Positions 6,441 through 26,353 of a stretch of 64,000 nt of DNA are shown piece after piece (positions within the stretch are counted from its first letter, which is position 1; each line of letters opens with the position of its first letter). A model generated the notes under the pieces. That model saw only the letters and a program-made list of their open reading frames with translations. It was not told the DNA's origin and did no database searches. The stretch is from contig DATAST010000091.1 in assembly GCA_036269115.1 (NCBI GenBank), positions 24,889-88,888 of the forward strand, written 5' to 3'. The stretch comes from Verrucomicrobiia bacterium (GTDB lineage: Bacteria > Verrucomicrobiota > Verrucomicrobiia > Limisphaerales > UBA11358). The position numbers and the translations under genes are program-made.

Positions 6441-7316
6441 TCAGTTTCTTGCAGTGCGGATGAATGGGGGAGAACACGCGCCTCGCGTGCAGCGGTTGCC
6501 CCATTTGCAGGCGTTCAGCAACCCAGCGCAACGACACGGTCCGCCGAACGTCTCTTTCAAGCGGGATTGAAAGCTCTGCGAGCAGCTGCGTCGTGCGCTT
6601 CCCCGCGCCGCACCACTGTGCGATTGCCGATAGCGACCCTTCACTGTCCGCTCCAGCCATGCTTCCAGTTTATCCAGAAAGGACGGTTCGCCCAGATACC
6701 AGCCCCGCCGAATCGCCTTCCAGCTCTGTTCCAGCTCTTTGCGGCCAGTCTTCATTCCCAGCTCAAGCACCCGTCCTTCAATAGACGCCTCATAACCGCG
6801 GCGATCCGCGGGCCGCAAGCGCAGGCTGCCCATCACCCGCCGCCGTTCCAGGCAAAACGGCGCTTTACCGCGACGAACTAAATACCACCGATAGCTGCTC
6901 CATTTGTAGCCCTTGAGCCGTTGCTGTCCAACCCGAACGAGCCCGGCGCGCACAGGATTCAAATGAATGTATGTGCTGAGGACCTGAAAATACATCGGCT
7001 CGCGCTCGTCCACAATCACCGCCTTGTAGCGACCCTGGAAAAGATGTCCGAATAATTTGCGGCGCCGATTATAGCGTTGCGTGTAAGCGCTTTGCAGCCA
7101 CTTCATTCCCGCCACCAAGTTCCCTTCCGGCGTCTCAATCAGCAAATGATAATGATTGCCCATCAGGACATAAGCGCGAACAAGCCATCCGGTCCTTTGG
7201 CAGGCTTCGGCCAGTGTCTCCAAAAACCGCTTGCGATCCTGGTCATCGGCGAAAATCGCCTGACCCTGAGTACCGCGAGCCATCACATGGTAAACCGCTC
7301 CGAGGTAATCTCGCAT
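6441..7316 (-). CDS. REP-associated tyrosine transposase (RAYT / TnpA_REP, IS200-like Y1 HUH enzyme)
   Basis: ATG at 7316 (the track start at 7370 is TTG). YHVMARG, HUH motif in LMGNHYHLLIETP, GHLFQGRYK, and catalytic-Tyr context STYIHLNPVRAGLV. Single gene with no tnpB or IS ends. GTAG-headed REP doublets are present elsewhere in the window. Confidence 0.85.
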   Translation of the reverse strand: MRDYLGAVYHVMARGTQGQAIFADDQDRKRFLETLAEACQRTGWLVRAYVLMGNHYHLLIETPEGNLVAGMKWLQSAYTQRYNRRRKLFGHLFQGRYKAVIVDEREPMYFQVLSTYIHLNPVRAGLVRVGQQRLKGYKWSSYRWYLVRRGKAPFCLERRRVMGSLRLRPADRRGYEASIEGRVLELGMKTGRKELEQSWKAIRRGWYLGEPSFLDKLEAWLERTVKGRYRQSHSGAARGSARRSCSQSFQSRLKETFGGPCRCAGLLNACKWGNRCTRGACSPPFIRTARN

Positions 7317-7354
7317 TGCCGGCCGTCCGAGTTGCGGTACAATTGCGCGACGTT

Positions 7355-8857: not shown

Positions 8858-9879
8858 TGGCAAAGTCGAAACAACCGGGCCTGGCAAAAGCGCGCGCGGC
8901 GAAGCTTCGCGATGCGATGACAATTCTGGAGGCACTCGGCTTCGCCGCGCGGCAAAGCAACGAAGTGGCTGCCTACAGCTTTCTCGCCCTGATTGACCTC
9001 AAGCCGTTTCAGCTGTGGAATGAAGCTGCCGAACCGTTGCGGGGCATCACGCCCATCATTGATTTCGTGGCCGAAGCGTATGGCGTTCGCTACGCGCCGA
9101 ACACCCGTGAAACGATTCGCGATGAGGCAGTGAAGTATTTCGTCGAGGCCGGAATGCTGATTCGGAACCCGGATGCCCCAAACCGCCCAACGAATAGCGG
9201 GAAGACAGTCTATCAAATCGAGCCAACGGCGCTCGAATTGTTTCGCTCGTTCGGCGGTTTGGAATGGAGCGGAAAACTGAAATCGTATTTGGTTGAGCGC
9301 GGGCGCATCCGCAATGAGTTGCTTCGCGAAAGAAAGCTATCAAGAATTCCGGTCAGGCTCCCGTCGGGCGCAACTGTGACTATATCGCCAGGTGGGCAGA
9401 ATCCGCTTATGAAGACCGTGATTGAGGAATTCTGCCCTCGTTTCGCGCCCGGTGGCACGGTCGTTTATATCGGTGACGCGGAGGACAAGTTTCTGCATTT
9501 GGACGCGGATTATCTGTGGCGGCTCGGCGTCGAAATTCCGGCGCCAGCCAAAATGCCCGACGTGATCGTCCATGACACGAAACGGAACTGGCTTTTGCTC
9601 ATTGAAGCCGTAACCAGTGCCGGGCCGGTTGACGGCAAACGGCGGAAAGAGTTGGCGCAGTTATTTGCGGGATGCAAAGCGGGTCTGGTTTTCGTCACGG
9701 CGTTTTCAACTCGCGACGCGATGCGGACCTTTCTGACGCAGATTTCCTGGGAGACGGAAGTGTGGGTCGCGGAAGACCCGGAGCACATGATTCATTTCAA
9801 TGGCGAAAGGTTTCTCGGCCCTTACCCTGATGTGATGCCGAAAGTCACAAAGACTACAAAGAGCTTCCCGCGAAGATGA
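8857..9879 (+). CDS. BsuBI/PstI-family type II restriction endonuclease
   Basis: 340 aa. N-terminal ILEALGFAARQSNEVAAYSFLALIDLKP and C-terminal MPDVIVHDTKRNWLLLIEAVTSAGPVDGKRRKEL..FVTAF..WETEVWVAEDPEHMIHFNGERFLGPY match my memory of the BsuBI/PstI REase N- and C-terminal domains. Translationally coupled to the upstream methyltransferase. Confidence 0.75.
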   Translation: MAKSKQPGLAKARAAKLRDAMTILEALGFAARQSNEVAAYSFLALIDLKPFQLWNEAAEPLRGITPIIDFVAEAYGVRYAPNTRETIRDEAVKYFVEAGMLIRNPDAPNRPTNSGKTVYQIEPTALELFRSFGGLEWSGKLKSYLVERGRIRNELLRERKLSRIPVRLPSGATVTISPGGQNPLMKTVIEEFCPRFAPGGTVVYIGDAEDKFLHLDADYLWRLGVEIPAPAKMPDVIVHDTKRNWLLLIEAVTSAGPVDGKRRKELAQLFAGCKAGLVFVTAFSTRDAMRTFLTQISWETEVWVAEDPEHMIHFNGERFLGPYPDVMPKVTKTTKSFPRR

Positions 9880-11643: not shown

Positions 11644-13410
11644 GTGTTATCAACATATGAGCAGGTTATGAGTGAGACCGCGATCAAAGAGTCTTCGGCG
11701 AAGGGGTTGCTCGAGCGCATGGTCGCCAACCGGCAGCTTTCGGCGATTGATGCGGAGATATTAGCCAAAGAAAAGTCGGCTGTTCAAAGCGAGGAAGACG
11801 TTTTGCGCTGGCTCGCCAAGGAATATGGACTGGCCTTTACCACGCTTGATGACGTGGACCCGGATCGGCAGTTGCTCTCGCTCTTTCCCGCGCGGTTATT
11901 GTTGAAGGAAGAGTTGCTTCCCTTAAAGCGGGACAATGGAACCGTGGAAGTGGCCACGAGCCGCCTCTTTGCGACTCAGGGCCTGGACGCACTTAAGACA
12001 ATGACCGGCTTGCATCTCAAGCCGGTCATTGCCTCCACGGAAGCTATCCAACGCGAAATCAAGAAGCGGCTCGGCGTCGGCGCCGATACCATCGGTACCC
12101 TTGACGAAGAAAAAGGATTCCAGGTCGTCGATGAAAACGCCGAGGACACGGACCTGGACGGAGCCGAAGAGGACGAGGCTTCGATCATCCGGTTCGTCAA
12201 CCAGGTGCTCAAGGACGCCATCGAGTTGCGCGCATCCGACATTCATCTGGAGCCCTTCGAGGATGAATTCCGGATTCGTTACCGCATTGACGGTGTTTTG
12301 CAGGATGTTCCGGTGCCGGCGCAGTTGAAACGCTTTCAACCGGCGATCGTCTCGCGCATTAAGATTCTGAGCCATTTGAACATTGCAGAAAAGCGCTTGC
12401 CGCAGGACGGGCGCATCAGGGTCCGCATTGAAGATGCCGAGGTGGATATCCGTGTTTCAATCATTCCCATGCTGCATGGCGAGGCGGTGGTCATGCGTTT
12501 GCTGCGTCAAAATTCCACGTTGCGCGGCATGGGCGAACTCGACATGGCCCGGCGTGAATTGGATTGTTTCGATCGCGTGTTGGAATTGCCTCACGGCATC
12601 ATCCTGGTTACCGGGCCGACCGGCAGCGGCAAGACTTCGACGCTTTACACCGCCTTGAACGAGATCAACGATTCGGAACGCAAAATTATCACGATCGAAG
12701 ACCCGGTTGAATACCAACTCAAAGGCGTCAATCAAATCCAGGTTAATGAAAAGTCGGGCCTCACATTTGCGCGCGGTTTGCGGTCCATTTTGCGCCATGA
12801 CCCGGATGTCATTCTCATCGGCGAAATTCGTGACCAGGAAACGGCGCAAATTGCCGTGCAAGCTTCGTTGACCGGTCACCTGGTTTTTTCCACGCTGCAC
12901 ACCAACGACGCGCCCGGCGCGGTGACGCGGTTGGTCGACATGGGAGTCGAGCCGTACCTGGTGGCGTCCTCTCTCGAAGCTGTGCTCGCGCAACGTCTCG
13001 TGCGCGTTCTTTGCAAACATTGCCGGCAGCCGGACGATTCGCCCACGGCACAGGCCCTCAAGGTGCAATTGGATATCCCCGCCAACACGACGATCTACAA
13101 GTCCGTTGGTTGTCGCGAATGTCGCAACACGGGTTTCTTCGGCCGGCACGCGATTTTTGAATGGATGGATACGGACAATGAAATCCGGCAGCTGATTTTA
13201 AAGAACGCCTCGACGGACCAGGTCCGTGACGCGGCCCGTCGGCAGGGAATGACAACGCTCGCCGAAGACGGCTGGCGCCTCGTGCGCCTTGGAATCACCA
13301 CGGTCGAAGAAGTCCTGAGCGTGACCACCGCCAAGGAAGTCGCCCGCACAACCAAGAACGAAACCCTGGATGCAACGGCGGGGCCGCAAGGAATCGCGCT
13401 GGCAAGGTGA
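11644..13410 (+). CDS. gspE: type II secretion / type IV pilus assembly ATPase GspE/PilB
   Basis: 588 aa. N-terminal T2SSE_N-like region, Walker A GPTGSGKTST, and tetracysteine motif CKHC..CRECRNTG typical of GspE/PilB. Track start 11644 is GTG; an ATG alternative lies at 11668. Confidence 0.95.
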   Translation: MLSTYEQVMSETAIKESSAKGLLERMVANRQLSAIDAEILAKEKSAVQSEEDVLRWLAKEYGLAFTTLDDVDPDRQLLSLFPARLLLKEELLPLKRDNGTVEVATSRLFATQGLDALKTMTGLHLKPVIASTEAIQREIKKRLGVGADTIGTLDEEKGFQVVDENAEDTDLDGAEEDEASIIRFVNQVLKDAIELRASDIHLEPFEDEFRIRYRIDGVLQDVPVPAQLKRFQPAIVSRIKILSHLNIAEKRLPQDGRIRVRIEDAEVDIRVSIIPMLHGEAVVMRLLRQNSTLRGMGELDMARRELDCFDRVLELPHGIILVTGPTGSGKTSTLYTALNEINDSERKIITIEDPVEYQLKGVNQIQVNEKSGLTFARGLRSILRHDPDVILIGEIRDQETAQIAVQASLTGHLVFSTLHTNDAPGAVTRLVDMGVEPYLVASSLEAVLAQRLVRVLCKHCRQPDDSPTAQALKVQLDIPANTTIYKSVGCRECRNTGFFGRHAIFEWMDTDNEIRQLILKNASTDQVRDAARRQGMTTLAEDGWRLVRLGITTVEEVLSVTTAKEVARTTKNETLDATAGPQGIALAR

Positions 13411-13437
13411 TATGAGATCTCTCCACGAGCGGCACTT

Positions 13438-13510
13438 CCGTAGCGCAGGTTTCCAAACCTGCTGTATCGCCGATTTCCAAATCGGCGTGCCGTTCGAACG
13501 CCGGTGCCGG
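13438..13510 (+). repeat. repeat family E (tandem perfect hairpins)
   Basis: GCAGGTTTCCAAACCTGC and CGCCGATTTCCAAATCGGCG palindromes in tandem. Related copies lie at 46298-46371 and 50061-50150. Confidence 0.85.
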
Positions 13511-13573
13511 TCAGGATTTTCAAGTTCATGGTCCCTCCTCGTGAACCGGATCGAATATCCGCATCAAAACGAC

Positions 13574-13728
13574 TCTCCCTCACCCCGGCCCTCTCCCGTC
13601 CACCCTCCGCAGTATCACCAGTCCGCGGTTCTCCGTAGTGCGGGGTATTATGTGCTCGTCCGAAAGCAATGTAATGCGCAATGCTACGGAGGACGGGCAA
13701 GGAGAGGGGGAATAGTCGTCCGACGGTT
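13574..13728 (-). repeat. repeat family F, expanded copy with a nested insertion in its loop
   Basis: The arms CTCTCCCTCACCCCGGCCCTCTCCC and GGCAAGGAGAGGGGGAA are the reverse complement of the GGGAGAGGGCAGGGGTGAGGGAGAG / TTCCCCCTCTCCTTGC family. They are separated by about 90 nt that carries its own CTCCGTAG..CTACGGAG stem. Confidence 0.7.
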
Positions 13729-13800
13729 GGAAACCACGGTCGATTACATCGGTTCGGGAGTACGCGGCGCAAATCACAAATCGCCAATCCAAAATAGATA

Positions 13801-15048
13801 ATGCCTACGTTTTCCTACAGAGCTTTACAGACAAACGGCGCGATCGCCGAAGGGGTGCTTGATGCTCCGGGCCGTCCGGATGCTTTGCGGCAGATCGAGA
13901 CGCTGGGATTGCGCCCGGTGCATGTATCGGAAAAAGCCGGCGCGACCGCCAAAAACGGCGCGGCTTCGGCGGGAAATTTTTCCCTCAACTCGTTCAAGTT
14001 CGAATCCAGAAAAGTTTCCGCGAAGGCACTGGAAAATTTTACGCGTTTGTTGTCGAGCCTTCTGGCGGCGGGCGTGCCGCTAAGCCGCGCGCTCGTGATT
14101 TTGTGCAAGGAAGCGAGTGCCCCAGTGGTCGCGGCGAAATGGAGGGAGATTCATGACTATGTCGTCGACGGCATGTCGTTGGCCAATGCCATGGCAAAAT
14201 CGCCGGAGACTTTCCCTCGCGTGTATGTCGCGATGGTGGAGGCGGGTGAGGCCGGTGGATTTCTGGATGTGGTGCTGGCGCAAATCGCGGATTTTCAATC
14301 GCGCCAAAAAGAATTGAAATCCAAGGTGGTCACGGCGATGACTTATCCCTGCATTTTGTTTATTGTTTCGACGATCATCCTTACGGCCTTGCTGGTATTT
14401 TTCGTTCCCAAACTGCAACAGGTATTTAAAACACTCCATGGTTCATTGCCTTTGATCACTCAAATCATCATCAACACGAGCGACGCATTGCGCTCTTACG
14501 GGCTATTCATTCTCGTTGGCGCGGCCATTCTTGCGATCGCCGCGAGCACATGGTTTCGTTCGGAAAAAGGAAAGCGCATCTGGGAAGGATTTATTTTGCG
14601 CGTGCCCCTGGTCGGCCCGCTGCTGGCGCAATTCGCCATGGCGCGCTTTTGCCGGATGCTTGGCACGCTGTTGGGCGCGGGCGTGCCACTGGTGCAAAGC
14701 CTCAATGTCGCCCGCCGCTCCATCGGCAATCAAATCCTCGTGGATGCTGTGGGACAATCAATTGAGCGCGTGCAGCAGGGCGGACGCCTCGGCCAAAGCC
14801 TTGCCGACTGTAAAATCCTTTTCACCGGGTCGGTGCTGGAAATGATCTCGGTGGCTGAGGAAAGCGGCCGGCTGGATTCTGAGTTAATAAGAGTTTCCAC
14901 CGTGACCGAAGGCGACCTGGACCGGGGCTTGAAAACGGCGGTTTCCGTCGCCGAACCTATGTTGCTCTTTTTCATCGCCGTTTTCATCGGCCTCATTTTC
15001 ATCGGCATGCTATTGCCTGTGCTGTCCATGAGCCAATATGTCCACTAA
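13801..15048 (+). CDS. gspF: type II secretion platform protein GspF/PilC
   Basis: 415 aa. Duplicated T2SSF-type domains (AGVPLSRALVIL.. and AGVPLVQSLNVARRSIGN..) and three hydrophobic segments in the usual positions. Confidence 0.95.
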   Translation: MPTFSYRALQTNGAIAEGVLDAPGRPDALRQIETLGLRPVHVSEKAGATAKNGAASAGNFSLNSFKFESRKVSAKALENFTRLLSSLLAAGVPLSRALVILCKEASAPVVAAKWREIHDYVVDGMSLANAMAKSPETFPRVYVAMVEAGEAGGFLDVVLAQIADFQSRQKELKSKVVTAMTYPCILFIVSTIILTALLVFFVPKLQQVFKTLHGSLPLITQIIINTSDALRSYGLFILVGAAILAIAASTWFRSEKGKRIWEGFILRVPLVGPLLAQFAMARFCRMLGTLLGAGVPLVQSLNVARRSIGNQILVDAVGQSIERVQQGGRLGQSLADCKILFTGSVLEMISVAEESGRLDSELIRVSTVTEGDLDRGLKTAVSVAEPMLLFFIAVFIGLIFIGMLLPVLSMSQYVH

Positions 15049-15167
15049 AACACTTTCAAAATGACAATTTATAAAATCAAAACGACAACTAACATGAACC
15101 TACCAACCCATCCTCGTGCGTCCCGTGAAACAGCGTCGTCGAACGAGACAAAAACACAGAAGATGCC

Positions 15168-15302
15168 GCAGTTCAAATTCGCGCTGTCGCGCGGCTTATC
15201 ATTCAGCGGCTTATTTTCGGGTGCTGTTACCCAGGGCGTCGCGCTCGCGGACTCGCGCTTTGCCCTGGGCTATTATCGTCCGCCCTTTCAGGGCTTTCAG
15301 TT
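15168..15302 (+). repeat. repeat family C copy (135 bp)
   Basis: Aligns along its whole length with the reverse complement of 50295-50430 (shared CGCGCTNTCGCGCGGCT, CAGCGGCTTAT, TTACCCNGGGCG, GACTCGCGCT, GCCCNGGGCT, CAGGGCTTTCAGTT). It lies between gspF and the gspG prepilin motif, and the frame stays open across it. Confidence 0.85.
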
Positions 15303-15354
15303 TGCTGCTTCGCAGACAAGTGGGAATACGACAGGGTTGCACGCCTGTACGACG

Positions 15355-15780
15355 TTGGCGCAACCTGCAGTCCGTCGTCGGGTTTCCCGCGCGTTTACTT
15401 TGATCGAAATCATGCTCGTAGTCGCGATCATCGGCATTTTGGCGGCCATCGTGGTTCCCAAAATTGCCGGACGCAGCGAAGAGGCGCGTGTGACCCGTGT
15501 GCAGACGGACATTAAAGGCGGCATTGCGACGGCCGTGGGCGCATTCGAGGTGGACAACGGATTTTATCCCAAGAGCCTGCAGGATTTGCTGCAGAAGCCC
15601 CGCAACGCCCGGAATTGGCACGGTCCTTATCTGGATTCGGCTCCAGTAGATCCGTGGGGTAATGCCTATCTCTATGCTTATCCCGGAAAACACAACTCAA
15701 CCGGTTACGACCTTTGGTCCGTCGGGCCGGATGGTAAATCAGGAACAGCTGATGACATTGGAAACTGGACAACACAATAG
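15355..15780 (+). CDS. gspG: major pseudopilin GspG
   Basis: Prepilin motif SRA|FTLIEIMLVVAIIGILAAIVVP, then GspG-type body (RVQTDIKG..FEVDNGFYP..WHGPYL..DPWGNAYLY..YDLWSVGPDGKSGTADDI). Start is uncertain. TTG 15355 gives a 13-aa basic leader, TTG 15337 is an alternative, and the frame is open from ATG 15061 through a 135-bp repeat. Confidence 0.9.
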   Translation: MAQPAVRRRVSRAFTLIEIMLVVAIIGILAAIVVPKIAGRSEEARVTRVQTDIKGGIATAVGAFEVDNGFYPKSLQDLLQKPRNARNWHGPYLDSAPVDPWGNAYLYAYPGKHNSTGYDLWSVGPDGKSGTADDIGNWTTQ

Positions 15781-16279
15781 CAATAGGTCGCGAAACCAAT
15801 GTGCTTTTACGCTCATCGAATTGGTCCTGGTGATGGCGTTGCTCGTGGTGGCCGTCTCCATCGTCGCGCCCCGGTTCTCGGATTTTATTCGCGGCCGGGA
15901 CCTGGATTCGGAGGCGCGCAGGTTGTTGGCGCTCGCGGATGCGGGGGAATCGCGCGCAGTGTCCGAAGGGATGCCGATGGTGTTGTGGTTCAACGCGAAG
16001 CAGAACACTTGCGGACTTGAGGCGGAGACGCCGCCCAAAGGCGGGGATACCAAAGCGGAAGATTTATCCATCAGTGAAAGCGTGGCCATCACGCCGGTCA
16101 ACACAGGCGCACCGGCAACGACCACGTTTAATCATTTGCCGGCAATCCGTTTTTTGCCGGATGGCACGGTGGATTTAAGCAGCCCACGCACGATTCAATT
16201 GACTGAAGGCGATGACAAGCTGTGGATGCTCGAATTGCAAAATCGCACAGGCTATGAAATTAGCGACAGTTCAAAATAG
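15752..16279 (+). CDS. gspH: minor pseudopilin, GspH/FimU-like
   Basis: Track ORF trimmed to ATG 15752 (29-nt overlap with gspG). The 18-aa leader ends in QCA|FTLIELVLVMALLVVAVSIVAPRF, followed by DLDSEARRLLALADAGESRAV, as in GspH-type proteins. Confidence 0.75.
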   Translation: MTLETGQHNSNRSRNQCAFTLIELVLVMALLVVAVSIVAPRFSDFIRGRDLDSEARRLLALADAGESRAVSEGMPMVLWFNAKQNTCGLEAETPPKGGDTKAEDLSISESVAITPVNTGAPATTTFNHLPAIRFLPDGTVDLSSPRTIQLTEGDDKLWMLELQNRTGYEISDSSK

Positions 16280-16796
16280 GGTAGGGACGGCGCGCCGCGC
16301 CGTCACCGCCCGTACAGCGGGCGGAACGCACGCTGTTGAACGTCCCACGCCCACGGATTGCGCCGCTAAACGCGGCGCTGACGCCGCAGCGCGGCGTCCC
16401 TACCAGTCTGCATTCACCCTGGCGGAGACGCTGGCGGCGCTGGTGTTTATGGCGATTTTGATCCCGGCCGTGGTTGAGGCCCTGCACGTCGCCAGTGGCG
16501 CGGGCGAAATCGCCGTGCGCAAAGGCGAAGCCGCGCACGTGGCCGACCGCGTTTTGAACCAAAGCCTGGTGATGACCAATTGGAGTACCGGCGCGCAAAA
16601 CGGCGTTACCGATGTGGGCTCCGATGAATTTCATTGGACGTTAAAAAGCCAAAACTGGCCGCAAGACACCATGCAACTGCTCACAGCCACGGTGAGCTTT
16701 TCCACGCAGGGACACGATTACTCCGTGGAACTGAGCACCCTGGCCAATCTTCAATCCCAGGCTACGCCGGCGGGAACACAAGGGAAGATGCCATGA
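16254..16796 (+). CDS. minor pseudopilin, GspI-like, with a REPIN translated inside its leader
   Basis: Prepilin motif QSA|FTLAETLAALVFMAILIPAVVEAL with F at 16413. The only in-frame ATG/GTG/TTG/CTG codons upstream of the motif are ATG 16254 and ATG 16212, both upstream of the REPIN at 16280-16404. The small body ends in a GspI-like beta region. Confidence 0.65.
   Translation: MKLATVQNRVGTARRAVTARTAGGTHAVERPTPTDCAAKRGADAAARRPYQSAFTLAETLAALVFMAILIPAVVEALHVASGAGEIAVRKGEAAHVADRVLNQSLVMTNWSTGAQNGVTDVGSDEFHWTLKSQNWPQDTMQLLTATVSFSTQGHDYSVELSTLANLQSQATPAGTQGKMP
16280..16404. repeat. REPIN-like element copy 2
   Basis: GGTAGGGAC..GTCCCTACC inverted ends. Arms are GTAG plus GGACGGCGCG-C-CGCGCCGTC and GACGCCGC-AGC-GCGGCGTCC plus CTAC. 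Starts 1 nt after the gspH TAG stop. Confidence 0.85.
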
Positions 16797-17620
16797 ATTT
16801 CAAAAGCGTTGAAACGTTGAAGCGGGCAGCATCTTCGGAGCGCGGCTGGGTCGGAGACCAGCCGCAGCGCGTCGTAACTTTCGTGAGTGCTGCCCCGAAA
16901 GCTTTCGGGGGTGCCCTTTTGCCCCCACACAGCCGCGCTCCGTCACCTCAACACGCGTTTACACTCATCGAAATGATCCTGGCCATTGGCGTTGCGGCTA
17001 TCGTGCTAATCACGATCTGCAGTGTCTTCTTTGCCGCTCTTCGCCTGCGCAACTCGACCCAGAATTACGTGGACGCGGCAACGCCCGTGGACCAAACGCT
17101 TTCGATAATGAAGCGCGACCTTGCGTGCGTTGTGACGCCAACAAATGGCACGACGAAAGTTTTGTCCGGCGATTTTCGAGTGGGCAACGTCATCAGCACC
17201 GGCAGCGGCATGCCGGCAGCCATTGAAATGTTCACGGCGAGCGGGCAAATCGGCGACCAACAACCCTGGGGCGACATCCAGCGTGTGACCTACGAATTGC
17301 GCGATCCCACCACGCGCGATGCGGTGGGAAAGGATCTGTTCCGCAGTGTCACACGGAATTTGTTGTCTAATACACCCACGACGCCCGAAGACCAGTTGAT
17401 GATGAGTGGCGTCCAGAGCATCGCCTTTTCCTGCTACGATGGCGCGCAGTGGTCGAGCACCTGGGACACGACCGGACTGACTTCGGCAAATACAAACCTG
17501 CCGACGGCAGTTCGGGTGGACATTCAGCCGGCCGGAAACCAAATGGCGCCAATTGAAATGGTCGTGCCTGTCGATTCCCAGGCGCGCACCAACGCCGTCT
17601 TGACCGCGCAAGCGCAATGA
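16793..17620 (+). CDS. minor pseudopilin, GspJ-like
   Basis: ATG 16793 overlaps the upstream stop (ATGA). Prepilin motif QHA|FTLIEMILAIGVAAIVLITICSVFFAALRL with F at 16958. A 105-bp repeat lies between the ATG and the motif; in-frame GTG 16883 and TTG 16919 inside the repeat are alternative starts. Confidence 0.7.
   Translation: MNFKSVETLKRAASSERGWVGDQPQRVVTFVSAAPKAFGGALLPPHSRAPSPQHAFTLIEMILAIGVAAIVLITICSVFFAALRLRNSTQNYVDAATPVDQTLSIMKRDLACVVTPTNGTTKVLSGDFRVGNVISTGSGMPAAIEMFTASGQIGDQQPWGDIQRVTYELRDPTTRDAVGKDLFRSVTRNLLSNTPTTPEDQLMMSGVQSIAFSCYDGAQWSSTWDTTGLTSANTNLPTAVRVDIQPAGNQMAPIEMVVPVDSQARTNAVLTAQAQ
16837..16941 (+). repeat. repeat family D copy (105 bp)
   Basis: Inverted ends GGAGCGCGGCTG / CAGCCGCGCTCC and central hairpin CCCCGAAAGCTTTCGGGGG. 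Related copy at 21071-21197. Confidence 0.8.
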
Positions 17621-19005
17621 AACCGTATCAATCCAGTTCGATTCGCAGGCAGCGCCGCAAGACTGGGGCGGTACTGATCATCGTTCTGTGGATTGCCATC
17701 GGCATGGTCAGCATAGCTTTGTACTTCGCAAACTCGATGACTTACGAATTGCGCGCTTCGGACAATCGCGTGAGCGGACTCGAGGCTGACCAGGCCATCG
17801 AAGGAGCAGCGCGCTATGTGAGTTTTGTTCTCTATAATTATGCCACCAACGGCGCGATGCCGTTGACGAACCAATACCAAACCGCAGCCGTGCCGGTGGG
17901 TGACGCGCATTTTTGGTTCATCGGCCACGACCCGGAGGAGACGCCCAATTTCGACCCGTATTTTGGCCTGGTGGATGAAGCCTCCAAGTTGAATTTGAAT
18001 ACCGTCGGCACCAACACCCTCATGGCCATCCCAAATGTGACGCCGGATTTTGCCGACGCGATCGCGGACTGGCGCAGTACCAATGGGGTGGGAACGTATT
18101 CGTTGAATTATGGGTCGCTCGGTTACGACGACAAAAACCGTGCGTTTGAAACCGTGGATGAATTGAGACTCGTCTACGGGGCCACGATGGAACTTTTGAT
18201 CGGAAACGATGCCAATCTCAACGGCGTTTTGGATTCGAGTGAGAAAGGTTCAGATGCGGGCGCCACGCTTCAATCGGGGCTTTTTCAGATGTGCACTGTC
18301 TATACCCGCGAACCGAATTTTACGACTTATAACGGAGAAACCGTCCTGTTGACCAACGTCAACACCGCAAGCCAGGCGGATCTGCGGGCACTTTTTCAAA
18401 ATGCTACGGTAAATACCTCGTACGTATCTCCCCTTTATACTTATGCTCATCCAAGTGGCCGCGCCGCGGTGACGTTTAAGGGCATCCTGGATTTTTGTGT
18501 TCATTGCAGGAATGCAGGGTTGAGCACGGAGGATTTTGCGAAAATTTATCCCAACGTCACGACCAGCACAGCCAACTATATTCGCGGGCGTATCAACATC
18601 GACACGGCTGGGCCGGCGGTGCTAACGGCGTTGTTTTGGGGCGTTGGCTACAGCCAGGGCGTGGACGAAAGTACAGCCCAAAGCGCGGCGCAATCGGTCA
18701 TCGATTATCGTGTGCAAAACCCGCAGAACCTGACTTCGGTCGGGTGGATCGTCGACGCGCTCGGCACGAGCAGCCCGGTCATCAAAGCGTTGCAAACCGG
18801 GGACTATGTTACCGCGAAGACCTATCAATTTACTGCGGACATCGCCGCAGTCGGTCCCTATGGCCGTGGTTACCGCCGGGTGAAGTTCATTTTCGATACC
18901 AGTGACGGCTCGCCCAAAATCATTTATCGCCAGGATTTATCCAGCCTCGGCTGGGCGCTGGGCGATAAAGCCCGTGAAACCTGGGTCGCCAAGGCAACAC
19001 CATGA
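17617..19005 (+). CDS. gspK: minor pseudopilin GspK
   Basis: 462 aa; ATGA overlap with the upstream gene. N-terminus RRKTGAVLIIVLWIAIGMVSIALYFANSM lacks the Glu5 residue, as in GspK. Large body with DELRLVYGATMELL-type helical repeats. Confidence 0.8.
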   Translation: MKPYQSSSIRRQRRKTGAVLIIVLWIAIGMVSIALYFANSMTYELRASDNRVSGLEADQAIEGAARYVSFVLYNYATNGAMPLTNQYQTAAVPVGDAHFWFIGHDPEETPNFDPYFGLVDEASKLNLNTVGTNTLMAIPNVTPDFADAIADWRSTNGVGTYSLNYGSLGYDDKNRAFETVDELRLVYGATMELLIGNDANLNGVLDSSEKGSDAGATLQSGLFQMCTVYTREPNFTTYNGETVLLTNVNTASQADLRALFQNATVNTSYVSPLYTYAHPSGRAAVTFKGILDFCVHCRNAGLSTEDFAKIYPNVTTSTANYIRGRINIDTAGPAVLTALFWGVGYSQGVDESTAQSAAQSVIDYRVQNPQNLTSVGWIVDALGTSSPVIKALQTGDYVTAKTYQFTADIAAVGPYGRGYRRVKFIFDTSDGSPKIIYRQDLSSLGWALGDKARETWVAKATP

Positions 19006-20483
19006 ATAATGTTTTGAAGATTAATTTTAGAAAACGAAAACGGCTGACCAGCCTGCTGGGCCTGACGCTCGACGGCACCCGGCTCGAGGGAGTCGTGCTG
19101 CGCCGCAACAACGGCTCGGTCAGCGTTCAGCAGACTTTTTCGGTCGTGCTGACGCTGGACCCGCTGACGGCGGCGCCGGAATTGGTTGGCCGCGAAATCC
19201 TGAACCACCTCGAGGCCGCCGAAGTGCGCGAGCGGAATTGCATTCTCGGCCTGCCGTTGAAATGGGTTTTGACCGCAGGCACAGAACTGCCGCCGTTGCC
19301 CGAGGCTGACGCCGTGAACCTGTTACAACTCGAGGCTGAACGAGGTTTTCACAGCGATATCACGACGCTTCAACTGGCTGAATCGCGTTGCGCTTTGGCG
19401 GGTGACAAAAAGCAAGTGACGTTCGCCGCCGTTTCCAAGAGTCAGATCGAACCGCTGATTGCCGTCCTCACCGCGGCCAAATTGAAGCCGGTCAGCTTTT
19501 CGCTGGGACTCACAGCGCTGCAACCGCCGTCAGACACCCGCTCACACACGGTCGGGGCTCAGTCGAATGGCGTGCTCGCTCTGGCGATAGGAGAAACCGG
19601 TGTGGGACTGCAAATCACCTGCAGCGGCGGCGTGGCTGCGCTTCGCGGATTCGAGGGGGCGGTTGGGACCGAAGGAAGCCGGCGCGTATTGCAAGCCGGT
19701 GTCGTGGCGAGAGAAGCGCGAATCACTTTGGGCCAGTTGCCCGCGGAATTGCGCGGTATGGTCAAACACATCCGGATTTTTGGTCCGCAGGATTTGGCCC
19801 GGCAATTGGCTGACGAAATGGAATTGGCGTTTGAGCCAATGGGTATCGACGTCGAAGTCGTTACCGCGTATAAGCCGAATGAAGTTGGTGTCCAGGCGCC
19901 GCCTGATGCGCCAGTCTCGGGGGCTTTCAGCCTGGCGGCGCGCCATCTGGCGGAACTACCCCCGGTATTTGAATTCCTGCCGCCGCGTCCCACGGTGTTC
20001 GAACAATTCGTTACCCGCTATTCATCCGGCAAAACCCGGACTGCCGGCATGGCTGCCGCGGCGGTGGTTGCGATTGTGCTGTGCTTTTTCCTGTTTCAGC
20101 AAATCGAACTGACAATTTTGCGCTCGAAGTGGAAAGCCATGTCCGCGAAGGTGGCTGATTTGTCAGCTTTGCAGGACAAGATTCAGCGGTATCAACCCTG
20201 GTATGACAGTTCATTTCCCGCGCTGACCATTCTGCGCCAGGTCACGATGGCCTTTCCCGAAGACGGCGTGGTAACGGCCAAAGCCATTGAAATTCATAAT
20301 GGCAACCAGGTGACCTGCACGGGCGTGGCGACTGACAGCGGCGGCCTGTTGCGAATGCTCGGGCAATTGCGCGCGACTGCCGGAGTCACCGGTGTGACGG
20401 TGGAACAGATTCGCGGGAAATCGCCCATGCAATTTACGTTTGATTTTCAGTGGAGTGAAAACGGAGGACAAAATGGAAATTAA
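19002..20483 (+). CDS. gspL: GspL-like (PilM-like cytoplasmic domain, one TM, PilN-like periplasmic domain)
   Basis: 493 aa; ATGA overlap with gspK. About 350 aa of cytoplasmic region, then TM AGMAAAAVVAIVLCFFLF, a coiled segment and a C-terminal mixed alpha/beta domain. Position and topology match GspL. Confidence 0.55.
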   Translation: MNNVLKINFRKRKRLTSLLGLTLDGTRLEGVVLRRNNGSVSVQQTFSVVLTLDPLTAAPELVGREILNHLEAAEVRERNCILGLPLKWVLTAGTELPPLPEADAVNLLQLEAERGFHSDITTLQLAESRCALAGDKKQVTFAAVSKSQIEPLIAVLTAAKLKPVSFSLGLTALQPPSDTRSHTVGAQSNGVLALAIGETGVGLQITCSGGVAALRGFEGAVGTEGSRRVLQAGVVAREARITLGQLPAELRGMVKHIRIFGPQDLARQLADEMELAFEPMGIDVEVVTAYKPNEVGVQAPPDAPVSGAFSLAARHLAELPPVFEFLPPRPTVFEQFVTRYSSGKTRTAGMAAAAVVAIVLCFFLFQQIELTILRSKWKAMSAKVADLSALQDKIQRYQPWYDSSFPALTILRQVTMAFPEDGVVTAKAIEIHNGNQVTCTGVATDSGGLLRMLGQLRATAGVTGVTVEQIRGKSPMQFTFDFQWSENGGQNGN

Positions 20484-21003
20484 AAATCGCCAGCAACGCC
20501 TGCTTGTAGTGACGCTCGTCGTCGCGGGACTCTACATCGCCAACCTGGCGATTTACGGGCCGCTGGTCAAATGGTGGAAATCACGGCAAGCAGATGTTGC
20601 CGAGCTGAAACAGGAGGTCAACGACGGGAACGCATTGATTCGCCGCGAATCGGCCATTCGAGACAAGTGGCAGCACATCCAGTCGAATGCCCTGGCCAAT
20701 GACCCATCGCAGGCTGAACAAAAGGTGCTCAAGGCGTTTGACAGCTGGGCCAGCTACACCGGTGTGAACGTCGAAAGCATCACCCCTCAATGGCAAAATG
20801 ACCAAAATGATTATTCGACCCTGGATTGCCGCGTGGAAGCTTCCGGCGACCTCGAGACCCTGAGCCGTTTTGTCTATCAAATTGAAAATGACCCGATGGA
20901 CCTTCAACTTGAGTCCGTCGAGCTGACCGCCAGCGACGACAAAGGCCGGCAACTGACGCTCGGTCTCCAAATCAGCGGCCTTGCCCTTGTTACGACACAA
21001 TAA
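20473..21003 (+). CDS. gspM: GspM/PilO-like bitopic inner-membrane protein
   Basis: Track ORF trimmed to ATG 20473 (GGAGGA 4 nt upstream; 11-nt overlap with gspL). MEIKNRQQRLLVVTLVVAGLYIANLAIYGPL TM, then a coiled coil and a ferredoxin-like C-terminus. Confidence 0.55.
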   Translation: MEIKNRQQRLLVVTLVVAGLYIANLAIYGPLVKWWKSRQADVAELKQEVNDGNALIRRESAIRDKWQHIQSNALANDPSQAEQKVLKAFDSWASYTGVNVESITPQWQNDQNDYSTLDCRVEASGDLETLSRFVYQIENDPMDLQLESVELTASDDKGRQLTLGLQISGLALVTTQ

Positions 21004-21004
21004 C

Positions 21005-21871
21005 ATGAATTTACTGGAATCATTCTCAATCAGGTTTTACGCTCCTTTTTCCTATTTCGCGAAGCGTCATGGAGTGCGGCGGCAACCCCGAAAGCTTTCG
21101 GGGGACGCCGCTTTCGACCAACATTCAACGCACGTTACTGAAACCCTCTGCGAACCGGCAACAGCGTTTCAAAGCGGTGTCACAGCCACCGCACTCCAAG
21201 ACCGTGCGGTGGTTCGACAGGTTGTTGGACAGGCCGGTCATTGGACTTGTTTCTCGAAACTTTTTTTCAATAAATCAGCCTTTTTCCTTTTTCCTCTCTC
21301 CTTTTTCCTTATCACCGCCGTCCTCGTCGCGCCCGCCCAATCCACCAACGACTCCGACACAACCACGACGGACTTCTCCTCCTTTCAGGTCATTTCAGAG
21401 CGCAACATTTTCAATCCAGACCGCTATGGCCGGACTACCACTCGTCATTACGAGTCGCGCTCCGTGCCGACCTTTTCATTGGCCGGCACCATGAGCTATC
21501 GCAAGGGGATGTTTGCTTTCTTTGATGGCACTCGGGAGGAATACCGGAAAGCGCTGCAACAGGGAGGAATCATCGCCGGATATACCATCGGGAAAATCAA
21601 TTTCGACGGCGTGGAATTACGGGCTTCCGGCATAACGAATTACATGAGAGTCGGCGCGGCGATGCGGCGTGAGGGAGATGCCTGGGAAATGAGCGCGCCG
21701 GGCGAGTGGGGGGATATGGCGTCTGCAAATGGAACCGGATCGGGCTCGGGGAGTGATACGAACAACGGAACGTCCACCAATTCCAATTCCAATACCGCTT
21801 TGCCCTCCGGCGGCGAACAGAATGACGTCTTAAAACGATTAATGGAGAAACGAGAACAGGAACTAAAATGA
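21005..21871 (+). CDS. GspC/PilP-like secretin-interacting protein
   Basis: ATG 21005 lies 1 nt after the gspM stop. TM FFLFPLSFFLITAVLVAP, then ISERNIFNPDR and a beta-rich region (FSLAGTMSYRKGMFAFFDG..GGIIAGYTIGKINFDGVELR), as in GspC HR / PilP domains. The cytoplasmic N-terminus contains a family D repeat. Confidence 0.5.
   Translation: MNLLESFSIRFYAPFSYFAKRHGVRRQPRKLSGDAAFDQHSTHVTETLCEPATAFQSGVTATALQDRAVVRQVVGQAGHWTCFSKLFFNKSAFFLFPLSFFLITAVLVAPAQSTNDSDTTTTDFSSFQVISERNIFNPDRYGRTTTRHYESRSVPTFSLAGTMSYRKGMFAFFDGTREEYRKALQQGGIIAGYTIGKINFDGVELRASGITNYMRVGAAMRREGDAWEMSAPGEWGDMASANGTGSGSGSDTNNGTSTNSNSNTALPSGGEQNDVLKRLMEKREQELK
21071..21197 (+). repeat. repeat family D copy
   Basis: Inverted ends GGAGTGCGGCGG / CCACCGCACTCC and the same CCCCGAAAGCTTTCGGGGG hairpin as 16837-16941. 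Lies inside the 5' part of the GspC/PilP-like ORF. Confidence 0.8.
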
Positions 21872-23307
21872 AAAAATTGATTCTACCAATAATGTCCATG
21901 TGCTTGGCTGGGCTTTTAGTCCCTGCCCACGCCCAAAATGGCGGCAGCGAACCGCCGGACAACGGCGGTGGCCCGCCCATGCAAGCGCCGTCGCCCGATG
22001 AACCGGGCGCGCCGGCTGACTCTGGAGCGCCTGGAGCGTCCGATCAAACTGGCCAAACCGGCCCGGGCCCGCGACGTGCGCCTTTGCCGGCTGGCGCCAT
22101 TCATTTCGTTCAACCTGGGAGTGCCGCGGCAGCCAGCTTATCCCAGGTCCCGGGACAATCCACCACCATGCATGCATCGTCAGTATTTATGCCGCCGGAT
22201 GACGCCGGCGGCGCGGCCAATCCGGATCAATTGCGCCTGAATTTTAACAATGTTCCCCTGGACATGGTCCTCAATTATTTGAGCGACGCCGCCGGGTTTA
22301 TCATCGTGATGAACACATCGGTGCACGGAAACGTCAGCGTCATCAGCAGCCATCCAATGACCCGCGACGAAGCGGTGAACTTGCTGAATGCGGTTCTTAA
22401 TCAAAACGGCTATGCCGCAGTCCGCAACGGGCGCACCCTCACGATCATGGAAAAAAGCGCCGCTAAAAACAGTGATATCCCCGTGCAGATCGGCAACAAT
22501 CCCGCGGGCATTCCCAGAAACGATGAAATCGTCACCCAAATCATTCCCGTCCGATACGTGGATGCGAGCCAATTGGTCTCGGACTTGTCATCGTTTGTCT
22601 CACCCGAGGCAACGATTGTTGCCAATCAGGCCGGCAATTCCATCGTGGTCACCGACACGCAGCAAAACATCCATCACCTGGTCGAGATCATCGCGGCCAT
22701 CGATCAAAGCGCCGCCGGTGAAACGGAAATCCAGGTCTTCCCTCTCAAGTATGCCAATCCCAATGACGTGGCGACTGAGTTGGGCGAAATCTTTCCGTCC
22801 GGAAATCCGACCAGCACTGGTGGTTCGCCCATCCGTTTCGGTGGATTTGGCGGCGGCGGATTCTTTGGACGAATGATGGCAGCCGCCCAGGCCAACAACA
22901 GTGGCAACGGCAACCGCGCGCAAAAACAATCCCAGGTCACGGCGGTGGCCGATGCGCGCACGCAGTCCGTCATTGTCATGGCTTCGAAGGATTTGATGGT
23001 TGAAATTACAGGTATGATGCAGAGCCTGGACGTGGCTTCCACTCGCGACCAGGGCGTGTATGCCTTTCATCTGCACAACGCCGACCCGCAGGAAGTGGCG
23101 CAGGTCCTGCAAAGTATGTTCCAGTCCGGCAGTTCGGGCCGTGGCAGCGCCCAAAACTCATCGCAGCAGCCTGAAACCAGCGCGCGAATGAATCGCGTGG
23201 CGCAAAATGCTCAGACTGTGAGCACGACCTCCTCAACGATCAGTTCCGGCACGGGCACCGGCGTAGGCCGCGGCGGTGGCGGCGGTGGCGGCCTGGGAGC
23301 ACCTTAA
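21868..23307 (+). CDS. gspD: secretin, N-terminal half (signal peptide, N0-N1-N2 domains and first half of N3)
   Basis: Signal peptide MKKLILPIMSMCLAGLLVPAHAQ and a Pro/Gly-rich linker. Then N0-like LRLNFNNVPLDMVLNYLSDAAGF and repeated secretin N-domains (IVTQIIPVRYVDASQLV..; EIQVFPLKYANPNDVA..VTAVADARTQSVIVMA..). It ends after VYAFHLHNADPQEVAQVLQSMF plus a Gly-rich tail, with no secretin C-domain. Confidence 0.85.
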   Translation: MKKLILPIMSMCLAGLLVPAHAQNGGSEPPDNGGGPPMQAPSPDEPGAPADSGAPGASDQTGQTGPGPRRAPLPAGAIHFVQPGSAAAASLSQVPGQSTTMHASSVFMPPDDAGGAANPDQLRLNFNNVPLDMVLNYLSDAAGFIIVMNTSVHGNVSVISSHPMTRDEAVNLLNAVLNQNGYAAVRNGRTLTIMEKSAAKNSDIPVQIGNNPAGIPRNDEIVTQIIPVRYVDASQLVSDLSSFVSPEATIVANQAGNSIVVTDTQQNIHHLVEIIAAIDQSAAGETEIQVFPLKYANPNDVATELGEIFPSGNPTSTGGSPIRFGGFGGGGFFGRMMAAAQANNSGNGNRAQKQSQVTAVADARTQSVIVMASKDLMVEITGMMQSLDVASTRDQGVYAFHLHNADPQEVAQVLQSMFQSGSSGRGSAQNSSQQPETSARMNRVAQNAQTVSTTSSTISSGTGTGVGRGGGGGGGLGAP

Positions 23308-23320
23308 AAAGTTTGAACGA

Positions 23321-26198: not shown

Positions 26199-26353
26199 GG
26201 ACTCCGCTTTTGGCAAGTGGCGCTGCCAACGGCGTCCGCGCCGCGTTGAGCGGGCTAAACATGAGCGGTACAGATCCCGCGACTCTCGTTGCGCCGCTGC
26301 ACGCGGCGTGGACAGCGGTGGCAGCGCCACTTGCAAAGAGCGCCGTCCCTGCC
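26194..26353. repeat. REPIN-like element copy 3 (long-arm subtype)
   Basis: GGTAGGGAC..GTCCCTGCC ends. Both arms are the long type (GGCAAGTGGCGCTGCC / GGCAGCGCCACTTGC). Fills the kinase-regulator intergenic space. Confidence 0.8.

Follow-up and report, generated by a model that had tools for sequence, protein, structure and literature searches.

A GTAG-tagged palindromic repeat in frame within the predicted leader of the pseudopilin GspI in a Limisphaerales bacterium

In the type II secretion (T2SS) operon of a Verrucomicrobiia bacterium of the order Limisphaerales, a large palindrome stands between the stop codon of gspH and the codons for mature GspI. The locus raises the question of whether this repeat is translated and, if so, how the pseudopilin gene that contains it could still yield a normal product. 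The window, which is the whole stretch of 64,000 nucleotides that was analyzed, carries the operon genes in the order gspE-F-G-H-I-J-K-L-M (Pfam, NCBIfam), with ATGA overlaps at I/J, J/K and K/L and overlaps of 29 nt at G/H and 26 nt at H/I. The features of the gspH-gspI junction are:

15752 to 16279, forward strand: gspH, encoding minor pseudopilin H (Pfam N_methyl and GspH, NCBIfam gspH)
16254 to 16796, forward strand: gspI coding sequence, 180 codons plus a TGA stop (ORF listing)
16254 to 16412, forward strand: predicted GspI leader of 53 aa, consisting of MKLATVQNR, 41 aa from the element and QSA, with Ala at position -1
16413 to 16793, forward strand: mature GspI (FTLAETL...), 127 aa (FTLAE motif, dN/dS, fold)
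16280 to 16404, no strand assigned: GTAG-tagged REP doublet (REPIN-like palindrome), 125 nt (inverted repeat, fold, family alignment, conserved stems)
16280 to 16310, no strand assigned: left REP arm, GGTAGGGACGGCGCGCCGCGCCGTCACCGCC, a small hairpin by itself (inverted-repeat pairs)
16374 to 16404, no strand assigned: right REP arm, GGCGCTGACGCCGCAGCGCGGCGTCCCTACC, in inverted orientation, its terminal 25 nt identical to the copy at 62687-62711

The initial annotation of this DNA claimed that gspI has no in-frame start after 16257, that its frame is open through the element and that the leader is therefore 53 aa long. A codon scan of the window agrees. None of the codons ATG, GTG, TTG, CTG, ATT, ATC or ATA occurs in the gspI frame from 16257 to 16412, and the 53 codons that begin with ATG 16254 and precede the Phe codon at 16413 include no stop. 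Upstream, in a frame that is open from 16203 onward, the start candidates are limited to CTG 16203, ATG 16212, ATC 16242 and ATG 16254. The last of these lies 23 nt ahead of the gspH stop codon, a distance shared by 141 of 155 related loci, and NCBI and JGI annotate the identical 180-aa protein (P0001). Because this ATG overlaps conserved gspH codons (Tyr-Glu), its conservation is by itself weak evidence. The TAG stop of gspH (16277-16279) directly abuts the 5' edge of the element. Judged from the reading frame, translation of gspI would begin at ATG 16254 and proceed through the palindrome.

The element has the architecture of a REP doublet. Its 31-nt arms are 87% complementary and 63 nt apart, and as RNA it has a minimum free energy of -80.3 kcal/mol (z = -4.8), with none of 200 shuffles folding equally well. 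Each arm is a small hairpin beside a terminal GTAG/CTAC, the left end reading G-GTAG-GGACGGCGCG/CGCGCCGTC and the right end GACGCCGC..GCGGCGTC-CCTACC. Both the GC-rich palindromic unit with a GTAG terminus that characterizes REPs and the two inverted units forming one larger hairpin that characterize REPINs are therefore present. REPINs are also expected to be extragenic, whereas this element lies within the sole readable gspI ORF, and the strict REPIN label would be a putative one here. A reading as an intrinsic terminator was rejected, there being no T-run after the element. An Rfam scan of 15000-17800 gave no match for the element, and a weak STnc70 match in the same range (E = 0.35) was put down to chance.

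Further members of the same family, and a gene that might mobilize them, are found elsewhere in the window:

5384 to 5534, no strand assigned: GTAG-family copy, intergenic, 151 nt (terminal 15-mer scan, family alignment)
26194 to 26353, no strand assigned: GTAG-family copy, 160 nt (repeat search, family alignment)
62587 to 62711, no strand assigned: GTAG-family copy, 125 nt (repeat search, family alignment)
6441 to 7370, reverse strand: IS200-like Y1 transposase, candidate RAYT for the GTAG elements (Pfam Y1_Tnp)

Counting the one in gspI, the 64-kb window holds four dispersed copies of the GTAG family, so the multiple dispersed copies expected of a REP occur within it. The terminal 15-mer of the family has 12 matches against 3.0 expected, a number reached in 0 of 100 shuffles. 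The protein encoded at 6441-7370 scores 45.2 bits with Pfam Y1_Tnp (cut-off 23) and 59.6 bits, below the cut-off of 80, with the NCBIfam REP-associated tyrosine transposase (E = 3e-16). The copy at 5384-5534 sits ~900 nt from this gene; none was found on the gene's other side. Mobilization of the GTAG element by a RAYT may be envisaged from this arrangement. For a comparison of length modulo 3 beyond the pseudopilin block, 1.1 Mb of fetched sequence yielded only three further members of this family and no member of five other families, numbers too small for the purpose, the loci being short and the families genome-specific.

The assignment of the gene as gspI depends on its position and on its predicted fold. 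Scores against the GspI families are all below cut-off (Pfam T2SSI, 22.8 bits against 25; NCBIfam gspI, 18.4 against 44.35; XpsI, 19.7 against 150), and a profile of the orthologues found no match among PDB sequences. The gene does occupy the expected gspH-gspI-gspJ position within the gspE-M operon. The AlphaFold model has a helix over residues 56-106 followed by a four-stranded sheet, with pLDDT means of 64-86 for 10-residue blocks over residues 51-170 and values below 50 in the leader. This predicted fold corresponds to the one typical of GspI, in which a long N-terminal helix packs against a small antiparallel sheet. The best ten Foldseek matches in the PDB are all GspI proteins, namely XcpV (9a1f, 5bw0, 5vtm) and EpsI (2ret, 3cfi), with target TM-scores of 0.55-0.67 and a probability of 1.00, but E-values of only 6e-3 to 6e-2.

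The comparison set consists of 160 related Limisphaerales loci from soil and peat, drawn from MAGs and metagenomes, and the gspI frame counts refer to 155 of them. From the conserved ATG to FTLAE the frame is intact and free of stops in 154 of the 155. The spacers range from 10 to 244 nt, and in 153 of 155 loci their length is congruent to 1 modulo 3. Inserts of 40-244 nt, which fall into 40 sequence clusters, are present at 110 loci. Because the loci are phylogenetically related, the figure of 154/155 overstates their independence, and counting by the 40 clusters is safer; an intact frame is found in 39 of them, with binomial probabilities of ~7e-18 for frame alone and ~1e-27 when stop-freeness is included. 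When 51 representative inserts were read in the other five frames, stops occurred in 19-27 of them (37-53%), against 0/51 in the frame used. The peptides are otherwise much alike, with a mean charge of +3.9 in the used frame and +3.6 in the others, and all are Arg-rich and non-hydrophobic and have no TM-like stretch. A special charge or hydrophobicity of the used frame was thus ruled out, and stop-freeness is its sole distinguishing property.

The initial annotation had proposed comparison with orthologues lacking the insertion, and these were found. Among orthologues at 80-87% identity, some sites are empty, some carry the same net insertion of 41 codons, and others retain in-frame deletion remnants of 52-82 nt. 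Independent assemblies, at least three in number (WIN, L081, L001), share the insert. Relatives with an empty site have a predicted 12-aa leader, MKLATVQNNRSG, followed by FTLAETL. The earlier statement that deleting the element restores a textbook leader therefore stands as regards the short leader of these relatives, but not as regards the exact segment, since removal of precisely 125 nt shifts the frame. Measured against the closest empty sites, where 10 nt separate the gspH stop from the Phe codon, the 133-nt spacer of this gene represents a net insertion of 123 nt. A permissive landing site had also been suggested; with spacers longer than 22 nt in 122 of the 155 gspI leaders, and gspJ behaving alike, the pattern proves broader than proposed. 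The comparison of sequences supports the view that the gspI leader region routinely hosts such repeats, nearly always in frame.

The same comparison bears on whether translation might instead start at a non-canonical codon or at one carried by the element, in which case the real leader would be short and the repeat mostly 5' untranslated. Such a case does exist: L046 has a broken upstream frame and an ATG within the insert that gives a 15-aa leader. Possible internal starts also exist in neighboring genes of the window (gspJ, TTG 16919 with a 13-aa leader; gspG, TTG 15355 and TTG 15337), and Di Nocera et al. suspected mis-called starts for many N-terminal intragenic REPs (PMC3733652). In the window, however, gspI has no in-frame NTG or ATH codon past 16254, and 38 of 109 insert-bearing gspI loci contain no internal ATG, GTG or TTG. 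Initiation after the insert was rejected because the window offers no candidate codon there and because the conservation of frame from the upstream ATG in 154/155 loci would then have no cause, and this alternative retains hardly any probability.

An equally direct concern is that the gene is a pseudogene, or that the long-leader prepilin is made yet left unprocessed, so that the lineage has no functional GspI. The leader is of unprecedented length and, as noted, the family scores fall short of their cut-offs. Yet in three lineages that carry the same 41-codon net insertion, mature GspI has a dN/dS of 0.09-0.11, with dS of 0.58-0.88, across its 127 codons. Because dN/dS is ~0.1 in these insert-bearing lineages, gspI is not decaying. 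The neighboring T2SS genes are all intact and translationally coupled, the GspI fold is retained in the model, and long leaders are the majority condition of the clade, with more than 26 aa in 95 of 154 orthologues. The initial annotation had kept a dead gene as its alternative; this was rejected on the purifying selection and the matched fold, and loss of GspI function is very unlikely.

Based on this evidence, it is quite likely that the GTAG doublet is translated inside a long GspI leader, that the leader is removed and that mature GspI is normal. A GTAG-tagged REP doublet would have inserted into the 10-16 nt between the gspH stop and the GspI cleavage site. Because the gspI start lies upstream and overlaps the end of gspH, ribosomes would have to read through the element, and for this reason the insert would persist only if it lengthens the gene by whole codons and introduces no stop. 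The product would be a prepilin with a hydrophilic, Arg-rich, disordered leader of 53 aa, which the positive-inside rule would keep cytoplasmic, and prepilin peptidase would cut after Ala-1 to release normal mature GspI.

The predicted precursor resembles proteins with class III signal peptides in its hydrophilic, positively charged leader, the Gly/Ala end, Phe at +1, Glu at +5, the hydrophobic helix and the T2SS operon. The cleavage site lies between QSA and FTLAETLAALVFMAILIPAVV, and ~20 hydrophobic residues follow. Gly or Ala is allowed as the last leader residue (PMC10191384), and among 154 orthologues 131 have Ala and 23 have Gly at position -1, while 146 have FTLAE. The 53-aa leader is positively charged overall and lacks any TM-like stretch. 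It differs in length, since such leaders are put at 6-26 aa in reviews, rising to ~30 aa in type IVb (PMC4471445), while the clade median for GspI is 31.5 aa and the maxima are 90 aa for GspI (L028) and ~100 aa for GspJ. Because leaders of 53 aa, and of 90 aa in L028, exceed the reviewed range, tolerance by prepilin peptidase is assumed, and cleavage of the 53-aa leader is a prediction from its sequence. Among the subset of window ORFs scanned against family libraries, none matched a prepilin peptidase family.

The insert itself evolves differently from the protein that follows it. In the same three lineages the insert peptide has a dN/dS of 0.56-1.14, close to free evolution, but its dS is 0.21-0.31, as compared with 0.58-0.88 in the flanking gene. 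Within the element, 19% of the columns vary in the stems and 47% in the loops, and three compensatory pairs occur (WIN, L081, L001). The hairpin thus appears to be under constraint as a nucleotide sequence, and it may have a role at the RNA or DNA level. A hairpin of -80 kcal/mol located 26 nt past the gspI start codon could cause a strong drop in translation.

These observations invite the view that the hairpins are selected cis-elements and not passengers, acting on the ratio of gspH to gspI/gspJ/gspK output or on the stability of the upstream mRNA, and that translatability is simply the cost of a position downstream of the upstream start codon. Besides divergence far below neutral, it would account for the prevalence of long spacers filled by many families that turn over, and for the strong hairpin predicted in nearly all inserts. 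Liang, Rudd and Deutscher (2015) reportedly found that REPs within ~15 nt of a stop codon reduce the output of the upstream gene. An RNA-level role has also been proposed for REPs near stop codons (PMC3733652). On the other hand, the 33 loci with an empty site indicate that the insert is dispensable, many of the inserts have decayed to remnants of 40-52 nt, and other operon junctions are often occupied too, as they would be under genome-wide repeat saturation. Concerted evolution with other genomic copies could also explain the slow divergence. Selection as a cis-element is thus considered unlikely, although it is compatible with a translated and discarded leader. More doubtful still is an extension in which the leader hairpins form a selected, lineage-wide regulatory layer, with passage through the -80 kcal/mol stem, possibly combined with stalling at the upstream stop, setting the stoichiometry or timing of the H/I/J/K tip. 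In this reading a repeat would recur after the stop of one pseudopilin and inside the leader of the next, with families changing and structure kept.

Translation of the repeat within a leader need not be confined to gspI. The neighboring gene provides a second case:

16793 to 17620, forward strand: gspJ (Pfam T2SSJ and N_methyl)
16836 to 16942, no strand assigned: second palindrome, in the gspJ leader (inverted repeat, 19-nt arms, 89% complementary)

The coupled start of gspJ, ATG 16793, overlaps the stop codon of gspI (ATGA); counted from it to the Phe codon at 16958, the leader would be 55 aa long. The case is less strict than that of gspI because the in-frame TTG at 16919 lies inside the element and could give the shorter leader mentioned above. 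Among related loci the coupled start is in frame in 141 of 153, and 87 of the 95 gspJ leaders that carry inserts are in frame with it. In-frame leader inserts are probably present in gspK, gspH and gspG as well. In the spacer between gspF and gspG the modulo 3 classes are 63/39/26; this spacer spans genuine untranslated DNA ahead of the gspG start and is silent on inserts in the gspG leader, so that its use as a control is limited to showing that spacers have no inherent tendency to come in multiples of three. The gspJ palindrome, which was absent from the initial annotation, is unrelated to the gspI element and has a fold z-score of only -1.8.

The arrangement is a variant of three known systems, namely intragenic REPs, the RPEs of Rickettsia and the class III signal peptides discussed above. 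Intragenic GTAG REPs, most numerous in the verrucomicrobium Opitutus terrae, are likewise GTAG palindromes, often dimers, that lie within ORFs near the 3' end of an upstream ORF, encode 20-30 aa or more and are linked to RAYT transposases (Di Nocera, De Gregorio and Rocco, 2013; PMC3733652). That survey took N-terminal cases as probable mis-annotated starts, whereas here the start is fixed upstream, conservation of the frame in ~150 loci supports translation, and the repeat lies in a leader predicted to be discarded after synthesis. A term search of its supplementary tables returned no pilin or pseudopilin entry. RPEs (Ogata et al., 2000) are described as mobile palindromes of ~100-150 bp that are inserted in frame in coding genes and translated, with function spared (PMC10969869, PMC3184786). 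An RPE stays in the mature protein, at positions that are predicted to suit the fold; here the insert occupies a removable part of the precursor, and many unrelated families have repeatedly hit one site of 10-16 nt. The REPINs and RAYTs of Pseudomonas and E. coli (Bertels and Rainey; PMC8049555, PMC5581495) share the two inverted REPs, the larger hairpin, the dispersed family and a Y1 transposase gene in the genome. Classical REPINs are extragenic by definition, and the present family is tied to the gene at 6441-7370 only as a candidate. No published repeats in prepilin leaders were found in the open-access literature.

If the long leaders are indeed processed, these loci amount to a natural experiment on how far prepilin peptidase and SRP/Sec targeting tolerate changes in leader length and sequence. 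Some 40 unrelated inserts, with leaders of up to ~90-100 aa, appear compatible with a conserved and selected pseudopilin, which would extend the 6-30 aa range about threefold and suggests that a prepilin leader can bear arbitrary cargo. Selfish palindromes in a tightly packed, coupled operon would then survive in a coding segment that is discarded after synthesis. For N-terminal intragenic REPs in general, a kept frame and absent stops offer a sequence signature that distinguishes true translation from mis-annotation, a point on which the earlier survey was undecided. In practice, prepilins of this kind may be overlooked or cut short by gene callers and PilFind-type predictors in which a short leader is assumed. 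Elsewhere in the window, a suspected frameshift in gspD at ~23290 was rejected, as the second ORF starts at an ATG of its own (23333) and carries a signal peptide.

The type II secretion operon occupies 11.6-21 kb of the window, with ATGA overlaps at the I/J, J/K and K/L junctions and gene overlaps of 29 nt for G/H and 26 nt for H/I.

Genes of the type II secretion operon (window positions)
11644-13410, gspE
13801-15048, gspF
15394, start of the mature part of gspG
15752-16279, gspH
16254-16796, gspI
16793-17620, gspJ
17617-19005, gspK
19002-20483, gspL
20440-21003, gspM (PilO-like)

The gspI frame opens at 16203, and the sole upstream start candidates are CTG 16203, ATG 16212, ATC 16242 and ATG 16254. 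From ATG 16254 to the mature Phe codon at 16413 it runs through 53 codons with zero stops, in agreement with the initial annotation, which had described a leader of about 53 aa open through a REPIN (inverted REP pair). The same source held that ATG, GTG, TTG and CTG are missing in frame between 16257 and the Phe codon. This was confirmed for the whole leader past 16254, where in-frame ATG, GTG, TTG, CTG, ATT, ATC and ATA are all absent.

GspI sequence models match the gspI product below their cut-offs, and a profile search with its orthologues against PDB sequences gave no match. An AlphaFold model built on an alignment of 76 orthologues predicts a long helix (residues 56-106) and a four-stranded sheet, the mean pLDDT of 10-residue blocks being 64-86 for residues 51-170 and below 50 for the 53-residue leader. 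Its best ten PDB matches are GspI proteins only (XcpV, EpsI; TM to target 0.55-0.67). Given these matches to the predicted structure and the location between gspH and gspJ, the assignment of 16254-16796 as GspI holds.

The element within the leader (16280-16404) has 31-nt arms that are 87% complementary and spaced 63 nt, and its RNA fold of -80.3 kcal/mol (z = -4.8) was equalled in stability by 0 of 200 shuffles. Either arm is a small hairpin adjoining a terminal GTAG/CTAC, the signature of GTAG-type REPs (PMC3733652).

Copies of the element family and candidate REP-associated tyrosine transposase (RAYT) in the window
5384-5534, family copy
16280-16404, family copy in the gspI leader
26194-26353, family copy
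62587-62711, family copy
6441-7370, minus strand, Y1 (IS200-like) transposase gene

The palindrome, its GTAG/CTAC ends and the four copies speak for the name REPIN. Because the transposase passes the Pfam model yet matches the NCBIfam RAYT model below its cut-off, the name is reasonable, short of full proof. The candidate RAYT, some 900 nt away from the copy at 5384-5534, is adjoined by a type II restriction-modification pair (7214-9879), which consists of a methylase resembling Eco57I/N6_Mtase and an endonuclease of the BsuBI/PstI family. The gspE-gspF intergenic region (13411-13800, 390 nt) contains several stable hairpins and appears to carry more repeat elements, including a unit of the type GCAGGTTTCCAAACCTGC.

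A protein search returned 667 relatives of the gspI product, and a Verrucomicrobiae MAG already has the identical 180-aa protein in its annotation. The nearest relatives, at 80-87% identity, are most often 139 aa long and have the leader MKLATVQNNRSG/FTLAETL (slash, cleavage site), which is the empty site that had been predicted for orthologues. Others are 150-197 aa long, with the additional residues located precisely where the window insert sits; two of the relatives, P0002 and P0009, share the insertion itself. Close relatives also retain remnants of the window family of 82, 73 and 52 nt after in-frame deletion. Compared with the empty sites, the net insertion is 123 nt rather than 125 nt. 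The earlier proposal that deleting the element leaves a textbook leader is borne out by the short leaders of empty-site relatives, but excision of exactly 125 nt would break the frame.

To escape gene-caller bias, DNA was analyzed directly in 160 loci collected by tblastn with mature GspI (80 from species-representative genomes, 80 from metagenome contigs; most carry the label Verrucomicrobia or Limisphaerales). The gspI counts rest on the 155 loci in which the gspH stop and the start were both located. The gspI ATG lies 23 nt ahead of the gspH stop in 141 of the 155 and no more than a few codons from that point in nearly all others. Between the gspH stop and the Phe codon, the spacer measures as little as 10 and as much as 244 nt; it is 22 nt or shorter in 33 loci, counted as empty, and at least 40 nt long in 110. 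Spacer length is 1 mod 3 in 153/155 loci, and the frame from the conserved ATG is whole and stop-free in 154/155. The inserts form 40 sequence clusters, including GTAG-tagged types and tandem-heptamer hairpins, and most of those of at least 60 nt form strong hairpins. With clusters counted as independent events, the probability that 39 of 40 would be intact is about 7e-18 for frame alone and about 1e-27 with stop-freeness. Stops occur in each of the other five frames in 37-53% of 51 representatives, and in the used frame in none. Overall, it is quite likely that the element is translated as a portion of a functional precursor, as the initial annotation had suggested.

Translation from a downstream or non-canonical start would make read-through unnecessary. 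The sole gspI locus with a broken conserved-ATG frame (L046, 504-620; a 72-nt spacer containing stops) fits this, since an insert-internal ATG restores a 15-aa leader, MKISHHASRITHQSA/F, and the element thereby provides the start. Internal ATG, GTG and TTG were absent from 38 insert-bearing gspI loci (11 clusters), and the window gene has no NTG or ATH codon in frame after 16254, which makes such a start highly improbable.

The alternative that gspI is a dead gene, raised when the insertion was first described, is scarcely more credible. In the window and two orthologous loci with the same insertion (L081, L001), mature GspI has a dN/dS of 0.09-0.11 at a dS of 0.58-0.88, so the gene is not decaying. 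The insert has a dN/dS of 0.56-1.14, indicating that the encoded peptide is nearly unconstrained and fitting a discarded leader. Its nucleotide divergence is unexpectedly low (dS 0.21-0.31), only 19% of columns vary in stems versus 47% in unpaired positions, and of 43 base pairs 32 are invariant and 3 show compensatory change. These values are the main support for a selected, perhaps regulatory, role of the hairpin, which would be compatible with translation of the element. The low divergence may equally reflect homogenization with other genomic copies, and a selected role is rather unlikely.

Under the favored reading of a translated leader, a mobile palindrome would insert directly 3' of the gspH stop, a location typical of REPs, which usually adjoin ORF 3' ends (PMC3733652). 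Because the gspI start lies upstream, an insertion, or its later adjustment, would survive only if it added whole codons and no stops. The long leader that results, rich in Arg, not hydrophobic and with a net charge of 0 to +8, would remain cytoplasmic and be removed after Ala-1. Cleavage of leaders so long is inferred from selection acting on the mature protein. Leaders with Ala as their last residue are known to be accepted (PMC10191384), and position -1 of GspI orthologues is Ala in 131/154 and Gly in 23. Ala instead of Gly also precedes the mature Phe in all four pseudopilins of the window operon, which suggests a clade-wide shift in the substrate preference of the prepilin peptidase.

Residues preceding the predicted cleavage sites
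15388-15393, SRA/F
15800-15805, QCA/F
16407-16412, QSA/F
16952-16957, QHA/F

In-frame palindromic elements are known from the Rickettsia RPEs (PMC10969869, PMC3184786) and from GTAG REPs inside genes, of which the verrucomicrobium Opitutus terrae has the largest number (PMC3733652). The gspI insert resembles both, and it is a variation on known kinds of element rather than a fresh category. The GTAG REP survey took N-terminal intragenic cases for likely mis-called starts, and no pilin or pseudopilin entries turned up when its supplementary tables were searched by term (PMC3733652). Reviews put prepilin leaders at 6-26 aa, with an upper limit near 30 aa (PMC4471445), in contrast to 53 aa here, and no reports of repeats in prepilin leaders were found in the searchable open-access literature. 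Comparative support for a translated insert is unusually strong, and the case offers a clear handle for experiment.

The pattern extends to gspJ and probably to further genes of the operon. In gspJ, a palindrome unrelated to the gspI element lies between the ATGA-coupled start and the Phe codon at 16958.

Palindrome in the gspJ leader
16836-16942, palindromic element

The gspJ leader (16793-16957) would be 55 aa from the coupled ATG, and an in-frame TTG within the element (16919) could yield 13 aa. Across loci, 141/153 gspJ genes (87/95 of those bearing inserts) have an open, in-frame route to the mature part when translation begins at the gspI stop, with a median leader of 34 aa and a maximum of 101 aa. 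The gspK N-termini also contain in-frame inserts, 66 of 71 insert-bearing loci being open back to the gspJ stop. In gspH and gspG, inserts are accommodated in two ways, either by reading through from the conserved start or by a start carried on the element; in gspH and gspJ, some 'MKLRITN..'-type elements seem to supply or keep an ATG of their own. Occupancy is high at junctions along the whole operon, so the gspI leader is not singled out as a target; it is where the need to translate the insert is clearest. Palindromic inserts are common in gspK N-terminal tails and gspH leaders throughout the fetched loci (L001-L160). Many gspI and gspJ inserts (L008-L160; e.g., L012, L052, L057, L068) are hairpins made up of tandem heptamers or comparable short units arranged in inverted arrays. 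Heptamer-type units include GTCACNN, ATTGCCA/ATTGCCG and ATTTCGG, encoding peptides such as SRVTCHVSA and IGNRQSAIGN, and these array hairpins look like a class apart from GTAG REPs.

Upstream of Phe 15394, the window gspG has 111 codons of open frame, running through a repeat. Its orthologues have a conserved 'MN/MK-I' start that corresponds in alignment to ATG 15094, from which the leader would be 100 aa; from TTG 15355 or TTG 15337 it would be 13 or 19 aa long. The repeat has a core (15263-15295) that scores 30.1 bits against Rfam Acido-Lenti-1 (E = 3e-4), under the gathering threshold of 37, and this Rfam family may be a dispersed repeat of the leader-insert kind too.

Beginning 2 nt past the gspM stop, a gene at 21005-21871 carries a strong in-frame palindrome (21066-21202, -68 kcal/mol) in the N-terminal tail that precedes a hydrophobic and probably membrane-spanning stretch; GTG 21209, directly after the palindrome, is an alternative in-frame start. 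Downstream of gspM, the secretin is in two separate genes (21868-24601). The first encodes a 479-aa product with N0 and Secretin_N domains and without the secretin domain. The second has a Gly/Tyr-rich stretch (GGYGGGGGYGGG) ahead of the secretin domain, and a frameshift was rejected because this gene has its own ATG (23333) and signal peptide.
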